Of a DNA stretch of 64,000 nt, positions 29,883 to 30,632 are shown piece by piece. The position numbers and the translations under genes were made by a program. Positions within the stretch are counted from its first letter, which is position 1, and the number at the start of each line of letters is the position of its first letter. The DNA is from Eledone cirrhosa (taxonomy: Eukaryota): positions 222,146,001 through 222,210,000 of the forward strand of contig OZ024742.1 in NCBI GenBank assembly GCA_964016885.1, written 5' to 3'. The notes beneath the pieces are model-generated. The model did no database searches, was not told where the DNA came from, and worked only from the letters and a program-made list of their open reading frames with translations.

Positions 29883-30632
29883 AATGGAAAAGAATGAAAC
29901 GAAATTTCATTTCTCACTCTTAGTACGGCTGATACCTAAATACAAGTATGTATACGTACATACATATATATGTACAGACGCACAGTAGTATGTATATATA
30001 TATACATACATGCACACATATATATATGTACGTATGGGTTTACCGAACATTTATTATAATGTTCGGTTTGTTTTAAACAAACAGCCCGAATTACGTCGTA
30101 CAGTGCTCGGCAACCATCGTCGCCCTTTTGTTCAATACTGACACAGGAACGATGTACTAGTTTCAAGCTTATTAGCTATCGCCAGCATCGTATACCGAAA
30201 ACGATAAATGGAAAAGAATGAAAAGAAATTTAATTTCTCACTCTTAGTACGGCTGATACCCATTTATCGTTTTCGGTATGCCCGGCCGACTAACTCACTC
30301 GATATGCAAATTAGGCTGCTCAGCCGTTAATATGCATTAGGAAGTATATACTTTCAGACGTTCAATCATCTGATAGAAAGGTATACGATGTTGACGATAG
30401 CTAATAAGCTTGAAACTAGTACATCGTTCCTGTGTCAGTGTTGAACAAAAGGGCGACGATGGTTGCCGAGCACTGTACGGCGTAATTCGGGCTGTTTGTT
30501 TACAAACAAACCGAAGATTATAATAAATGTTCGGTAAACCCATACGTACATATATATATGTGTGCATGTATGTGTATATATACATACTACTGTGCGTCTG
30601 TACACATATATGTATGTACGTATACATGTATC
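29883..30632. mobile_element. Family C HHR element, inverted plus partial tandem (HHRs 30149-30191 minus, 30385-30427 plus)
   Basis: ACGATG-[CTGACGA consensus]-TAGCTAATAAGCTT-GAAA-CTAGT-A-CATCGT; octamer at 30304. Confidence 0.85.

Follow-up and report, generated by a model that had tools for sequence, protein, structure and literature searches.

The 64,000-nt stretch of DNA analysed here (the window) comes from a 3.0-Gb animal genome. Its positions 29883-30630 are occupied by one composite insertion of a repeat that we call family C, bracketed by a 13-bp direct duplication (Table 1), and no ORF of at least 110 amino acids was found over this interval. The 3' end had initially been annotated as partially duplicated in tandem. 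The repeated segment at 30205-30260 does match 29881-29936 at 96%, but we reinterpret it as the tail of the preceding unit in a tandem series, joined to position C116 of the long-ended arm via a short GGTAT microhomology. Two further traces of the family were seen in the window, a decayed piece comprising tail and long end (417-702) and a 34-bp exact fragment (26075-26108).

Table 1. Features of the family C insertion and of the family D arms (positions in the window; C and D numbers are unit positions)
Feature	Position	Strand	Remarks
13-bp target-site duplication, left copy	29870-29882	+	
Long-ended arm of C	29882-30196	-	C116-C431; C15-115 lost, 12-mer included
Family C tail	29882-29937	-	Long end (C431) to short end (C373-376); contains GTGAG strand (29913-29918), GYCRTAC strand (29923-29929), terminal hairpin and T-rich end
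Type I hammerhead motif	30142-30198	-	Core change CTGGCGA at 30179-30185
Tail of preceding tandem unit plus first 14 nt of next unit	30192-30260	-	C377-431-14
Inverted arm of C	30260-30627	+	C426-431-365; tail absent; stops 8-11 nt before usual short end
ACTCAC	30293-30298	+	Predicted partner of tail GTGAG in circular or tandem RNA
12-mer TATGCAAATTAG	30303-30314	+	Matches -77 to -79 element of host U6/RNase MRP; also 5' strand of predicted hairpin
TATA-like box	30345-30350	+	43 nt from 12-mer start in consensus, 42 in window copy
Putative transcription start	30375	+	About 30 nt beyond TATA-like box
Type I hammerhead	30375-30432	+	Core change TTGACGA at 30391-30397; palindromic ACTAGT stem III; putative cut after 30421
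Body strand GTACGGC	30475-30481	+	Predicted pairing with tail GCCGTAC; covaries in C2 and D
13-bp target-site duplication, right copy	30631-30643	+	
Inverted short-ended arm of D	62405-62789	-	D15-399; hammerhead 62615-62686
Long-ended arm of D	62788-63344	+	D376-466, then full 466-bp unit 62879-63344; hammerhead 62996-63067

The family C unit is 431 bp long (consensus from six full units, mean identity 97.8%), with 3,227 candidates in the genome at first look. Family D, also present in the window, has a 466-bp unit (units 466-469 bp, 36% GC) and forms long arrays of near-identical copies. A head pattern shared by the families gave 24,458 exact matches in the genome and none for the reversed control, and these matches uncovered a sister family, C2 (456-502 bp), together with D subfamilies. 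Parts of D were also present in 20 sequencing runs under 17 organism codes, none of them listed as an RNA run. In three of four runs coded as four other organisms, a whole D-like unit lies on a single contig with 8-13 differences (about 97-98% identity), and two of these three contigs join end to start, as in tandem copies. Such units may come from close relatives, from transfer or from mixed samples.

We then compared C with D along their whole length. The first-pass annotation had held that the bodies of the two families differ and that similarity is concentrated in promoter, ribozyme and terminus blocks under selection. The junction motif on which it drew is present in both families (30263-30319 and 62876-62929). 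However, global alignment of C (431 bp) with D (466 bp) gave 292 identities at 420 aligned positions and a score of 315, against 99 ± 12 for 200 shuffles (z = 17.8). Since shuffled sequences give 56-66% identity under the same gap costs, it is the scores and not the percentages that bear the homology argument. For the body alone (C167-280, 74 of 113 positions identical) none of 300 shuffles scored as high, which refutes the proposed difference. Five of six segments exceeded all 300 shuffles, the weakest, C55-112, being equalled by five. Nor is the similarity clustered: identity is 73% (101/139) in the annotated blocks and 65% (191/292) in the remainder (Fisher P = 0.08), while the longest identical run (12 nt; P = 0.74) is expected by chance and the variance among alignment windows is not above the null, as under uniform similarity, an outcome that the first-pass annotation had itself named as refuting its view. 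Because near-uniform similarity of this kind reflects common descent, block-wise conservation has to be rejected. To judge from these alignments, C, C2 and D are sister repeats, related by descent over their whole length.

All three families carry a type I hammerhead motif with core and stems I-III. As annotated, it lies downstream of the octamer, its core beginning 88 nt (C) or 100 nt (D) away and being followed by GAAACTAGT. The two copies in the window carry different single core changes (Table 1), and the consensus is the canonical CTGACGA, found in 40 of 55 anchor matches (31 C loci; six of the 55 are not hammerhead-like). Stems I and II are unlike in sequence between C and D, yet paired in both, and the palindromic ACTAGT of stem III encloses a loop of 2 nt. 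From the motif, cleavage would be expected after GUA (C157) or GUC (D166), and both window copies, each with its core change, are probably dead. The D hammerhead scores 38.9 bits against Rfam HH9, under the cut-off of 52, and a scan at the Rfam gathering thresholds reported no hammerhead. Passages of PMC7229834 describe hammerheads with a weak palindromic helix III as cleaving better as dimers. When ACTAGT hammerheads with other beginnings of stem II were sought by pattern, the first 100 of 5,800 matches belonged mostly to a D subfamily. Another hammerhead repeat family, with core CTGAAGA and a longer stem II, lies at 60928-61180 (+) of the window and ends in (AT)n; related copies occur at loci L197, L297, L333 and L336.

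Next, we considered where the insertions end. Of 46 D 3' ends at 32 loci, 45 fall either at D466 (27) or at D394-399 (18), one lying elsewhere; these loci were picked for containing a full unit, which favours long ends. The two sites are 67-72 nt apart, and all 13 inverted D insertions seen whole have one arm at each of them (six further ones were seen in part only). C ends, scored by eye, gather at 431 and 373-376; a minority fall at other positions, among them the plus arm in the window at 365, and several C insertions are tandem or inverted with the tail at one end (for example, L008, L009, L015, L027 and L030). In the predicted folds, a small hairpin has the short end in its loop (C and D), and the long end falls within a T-rich strand beyond the terminal hairpin. 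Most C and D targets are (TA)n, where duplications are unreadable; that of the window copy is legible and measures 13 bp. The 5' ends of 50 D arms are scattered: none lies within 5 nt of the ribozyme cut, so that an origin of these ends at the cut is rejected, two lie near the putative transcription start, and 14 fall in the tail (P = 0.09, not significant). This pattern of 3' ends resembles the one seen in Penelope-like elements (PLEs). According to passages of PMC11167929, reverse transcription by the anole PLE PAc starts in vitro at two internal sites that enclose the tail, and each strand of the target is cut and extended; tandem and inverted PLE copies with the tail at one end are described in parts of PMC8557442. 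The autonomous PLEs of the genome studied here share the two-end pattern, with tails of about 40-75 nt. Thus, the TCAG..AGTGAG terminus of the annotation represents a Penelope-type tail, bounded by two insertion ends. The motif occurs at 29932 and 30256 (-) and at 62816 and 63282 (+), but its TCAG part is not invariant and is missing from C2.

Are the tail and the body connected at the RNA level? Folded as circles, C, C2 and D are predicted to exceed 30 shuffles in stability by 7, 9 and 12 SD, respectively, and their helices follow the same order. The tail GTGAG is predicted to pair with the head CTCAC with a probability of 0.96-0.97 in D and 0.8-0.99 in C2 but only 0.18-0.39 in C, and the tail GYCRTAC with a body strand with a probability of 0.93-1.0. 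In the latter helix, compared family by family (automatic DNA alignment misplaces the D tail), both strands change from C (GTACGGC/GCCGTAC) to C2 (GTATGGC/GCCATAC) and again from C2 to D (GTATGAC/GTCATAC), so the two degenerate positions of the annotated terminus motif covary with the very body that had been supposed to differ. With structure predicted from one side of each comparison, the substitutions from C to C2 break eight pairs where 18.1 ± 2.6 are expected (none of 3000 nulls as low; AT-rich part omitted). Among D subfamilies the signal is weak, with 12 pairs broken against 17.5 for D3 (P = 0.03) and 4 against 6.4 for D2 (P = 0.10). For three variants from other organisms P was 0.74, 0.03 and 0.30, and five of six single decaying C copies behave like the null. 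Compensatory pairs on their own are not above the null between C and C2 (2 against 2.0 expected). In these predicted structures, the visible constraint is on RNA pairing, body included. A test for RNA editing showed no strand bias in 66 private D variants (12 A>G against 15 T>C) or in 28 C copies, although predicted stems hold 11 of the 12 A>G variants (P = 0.03) and a cluster was seen in one copy.

From the proposal of a selected promoter, ribozyme and terminus, the promoter-like character of the octamer block nevertheless stands. Host small-RNA promoters (L138-L167, L380, L381 and L091-L137) are of two types, one with a 12-mer at -78 and a TATA box (U6 and MRP), the other with an AATTA..TCAGT..TATA-like arrangement (U1, U2, U5 and RNase P). 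The 12-mer, TATGC(A/T)AAT(T/G)AG, lies at -77 to -79 in three separate U6 groups (L138, L139 and the C19 array) and in the single RNase MRP gene, each with a TATA box near -30. Among 30 U6 loci, six array copies have an insertion there and two others lack the 12-mer at that position; 12 further U6 matches without it are retrocopy-like. RNase P has a TCAGT-type upstream element and no 12-mer, the 12-mer is absent from nine U1/U2 promoters between -115 and -20, and a TCAGT-type motif (TCAAT in one case) is common to ten non-redundant U1/U2/U5 promoters at -55 to -58. Two U5 snRNA genes lie in the window itself (3463-3585, +; 5081-5203, -), within a 977-bp inverted duplication at 94% identity (2830-3806 and 4894-5836). 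As a candidate U1/U2-type proximal element, the tail TCAG was rejected: the C, C2 and D sites are not above shuffles at three profile widths (P = 0.075-0.97), and the missing TCAG of C2 also undercuts it.

In C, C2, D and D3 the 12-mer is invariant, a TATA-like box follows 42-44 nt after it, and pyrimidine-AGA stands exactly at +73 from it, directly before hammerhead stem I. The chance of a U6-type 12-mer is about 7e-7 per site. In another hammerhead repeat, whose body does not align significantly to C or D, one copy combines a similar 12-mer with a TATA-like box at +44 and a purine at +73. A hammerhead repeat on the minus strand of L327 (near 374-470) shows a tandem octamer-like motif, a CCAAT-like box and C/D-like +73 spacing. 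The spacing to the TATA-like box is tighter than in the host U6/MRP genes (47-49 nt or more), by about 4-6 nt. Runs of T4-T7 stand at the long end, and further T runs occur inside D (T4, T5) and C2; those in D could stop RNA polymerase III. Weighing the motif match and its position, we lean towards the 12-mer block acting as a promoter in the C and D units.

If C and D are copied by a PLE, which one might it be? The window contains a 5'-truncated PLE ORF within (TA)n (58986-59909, +), whose relatives include several young families with intact ORFs of 713-719 aa and which led us to families P1 and P2 (80,192 candidates, intact 713-aa ORF). Their terminal repeat combines a hammerhead with an ACTC/GAGT hairpin tail whose two ends lie 66-70 nt apart, so the ACTC/GAGT class of the first-pass annotation has an autonomous parent. 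Fragments of this terminal repeat lie at 41741-41925, 48228-48270 and 62162-62288 of the window. P3 and P4 carry a related GCTC/GAGC hairpin; a P3-like terminal-repeat tail was seen at 13267-13390 (+), and P3 elements (L338-L354) have two different hammerhead-like motifs in their 3' region. GIY-YIG ORFs fell into seven clusters, and in the six whose 3' regions were compared the tails are other than those of C and D. From their motifs, we take P1-P4 to be Hydra-like and most GIY-YIG groups to be Neptune-like. The C/D tail, the TCAGYCRTAC..AGTGAG terminus, was absent among about 10 PLE families sampled, in a comparison that scored top candidates and did not extend to some termini; matches in L275, L282 and L329 proved to be neighbouring C or C2 copies rather than PLE tails. 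The C/D tail differs in sequence from the ACTC/GAGT class, as had been annotated, being unlike the tails of P1-P4. Tail length and target type do not separate the candidate partners. The two-end footprint, the inverted copies and the hammerhead bear out the earlier assignment of C and D to the Penelope-type non-autonomous ribozyme repeats.

Among the closest known systems are the metazoan non-LTR retrozymes. Passages of two reports (Cervera and de la Pena 2020, PMC7229834; Li, Clavereau and Pollet 2026, preprint 10.64898/2026.07.22.740005) describe tandem units that are non-coding and low in GC, with a type I hammerhead and a long target duplication, as in C and D, and propose PLEs as the mobiliser; the retrozyme class and its link to PLEs are already published there. 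Where present, target duplications of non-LTR retrozymes exceed 4 bp, and that of the window copy is 13 bp. Published units measure 150-450 bp in these passages, whereas C, C2 and D units, at 431-502 bp, are at or above this range, and the same passages map no pair of fixed ends, no covarying long-range fold and no internal promoter. In Xenopus, 24 of 57 retrozyme families are reported to match known elements, nearly all of them PLEs, while no parent pLTR was found for C and D. With EN+ PLEs, as portrayed in parts of PMC11167929 (anole PAc) and PMC8557442, C and D share a tail flanked by two sites where reverse transcription starts or, in C and D, is likely to start, as well as AT-rich targets, copies in tandem and inverted arrangement, and ends away from the ribozyme cut; they differ in having no ORF, a tail of 55-72 nt against 30-40 nt, and U-rich putative start sites. 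An snRNA promoter inside a hammerhead tandem repeat is reported for newt satellite 2 (parts of PMC2220036), where it is described as an RNA polymerase II promoter, whereas C and D match the host U6/MRP element and not that of U1/U2/U5. Compared with host U6 and RNase MRP promoters, which have the same 12-mer and TATA-like box at the wider spacing, the C/D element lies inside the repeated unit and would itself be transcribed. In the literature searched, which excludes most subscription journals and is represented partly by excerpts, we found no report of retrozymes with a U6-type element or with a tail helix that covaries. The contribution of this locus is that similarity between C and D is not confined to blocks, that a predicted helix of the tail covaries, that the 12-mer matches U6/MRP and not U1/U2, and that the ACTC/GAGT tail can be assigned to P1/P2.

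Taken together, C, C2 and D are best explained as sister non-coding tandem repeats with two fixed ends flanking a tail, likely non-LTR retrozymes copied from RNA by a PLE protein, a reading to which we give a probability of about three in four. Its basis is the end-to-end homology, the intact hammerhead consensus, the two discrete 3' ends, the mirror insertions with one arm per end, the (TA)n targets and the identity of the 12-mer with an upstream element of host U6/MRP genes. Counted against it are the lack of a partner PLE among the families sampled, the TATA spacing, the T runs of D, the scattered 5' ends, compensatory pairs at the null, the weak signal in D subfamilies, the low head/tail probability in C and the lack of an A-to-G bias. 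In such a cycle, the 12-mer and TATA-like box would initiate transcription about 73 nt downstream, just ahead of the ribozyme, and, because the units are tandem, read-through into the next unit would copy the promoter into RNA. Two hammerhead cuts would free one unit, which might circularise, and the fold would pair the tail with head and body. The PLE protein would bind this fold, nick both strands of an AT-rich target and begin reverse transcription at the two U-rich sites flanking the tail, leaving one long and one short arm joined at their 5' ends.

Other explanations deserve consideration. The bodies could be unrelated or fully diverged, with promoter, ribozyme and terminus blocks kept by selection in a separate class with its own PLE partner. 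The motifs are indeed present, the tail is unlike those of P1-P4 and the blocks are slightly more alike than the rest; however, the body homology largely refutes the part of this idea that concerns the bodies, conservation is not clustered, the tail blocks pair with head and body, and C2 lacks TCAG, which makes it improbable overall. Spread of a satellite at the DNA level, by unequal crossover and fold-back repair from a dead PLE terminal repeat and with no RNA step of its own, would suit the long near-identical arrays, and passages of the preprint 10.64898/2026.07.22.740005 propose local amplification for retrozymes. We regard it as highly improbable, as dispersed insertions with fixed paired ends, a 13-bp duplication and selected pairing call for an RNA template.

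More credible, though still less likely than not, is the idea that the 12-mer is kept only as a strand of an RNA hairpin or as a protein-binding RNA site, that outside promoters read through the units, and that the likeness to U6 is ancestral or due to chance. The 12-mer does form part of a hairpin predicted for C, C2, D and D3, an identical run of its length is expected by chance between C and D, and the TATA spacing is unlike that of host U6. Yet the partner strand of the hairpin varies while the 12-mer does not, the per-site chance of a U6-type 12-mer is very small, and the +73 position persists despite indels and recurs in a family whose body is different, all of which speaks against this idea.

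It is also conceivable, if rather unlikely, that C and D are self-sufficient RNA parasites that carry a host U6-type promoter within the copied RNA and whose tail rebuilds the ACTC/GAGT helix of P1/P2 over a long range, with one shape-reading PLE protein serving both classes. The distance from GAG to the long end is 45 nt in D and P2, and 31 nt in C. If this were true, a promoter that is usually left behind by retrotransposition would survive via a tandem or circular template, and the whole body would be the loop of the rebuilt ACTC/GAGT helix. More generally, the findings bear on how animal retrozymes are transcribed and on which RNA features a PLE protein recognises. For both questions, the C and D families offer exact positions, namely, two putative start sites, one predicted covarying helix and one candidate promoter, in a genome that also holds young, intact PLE proteins.
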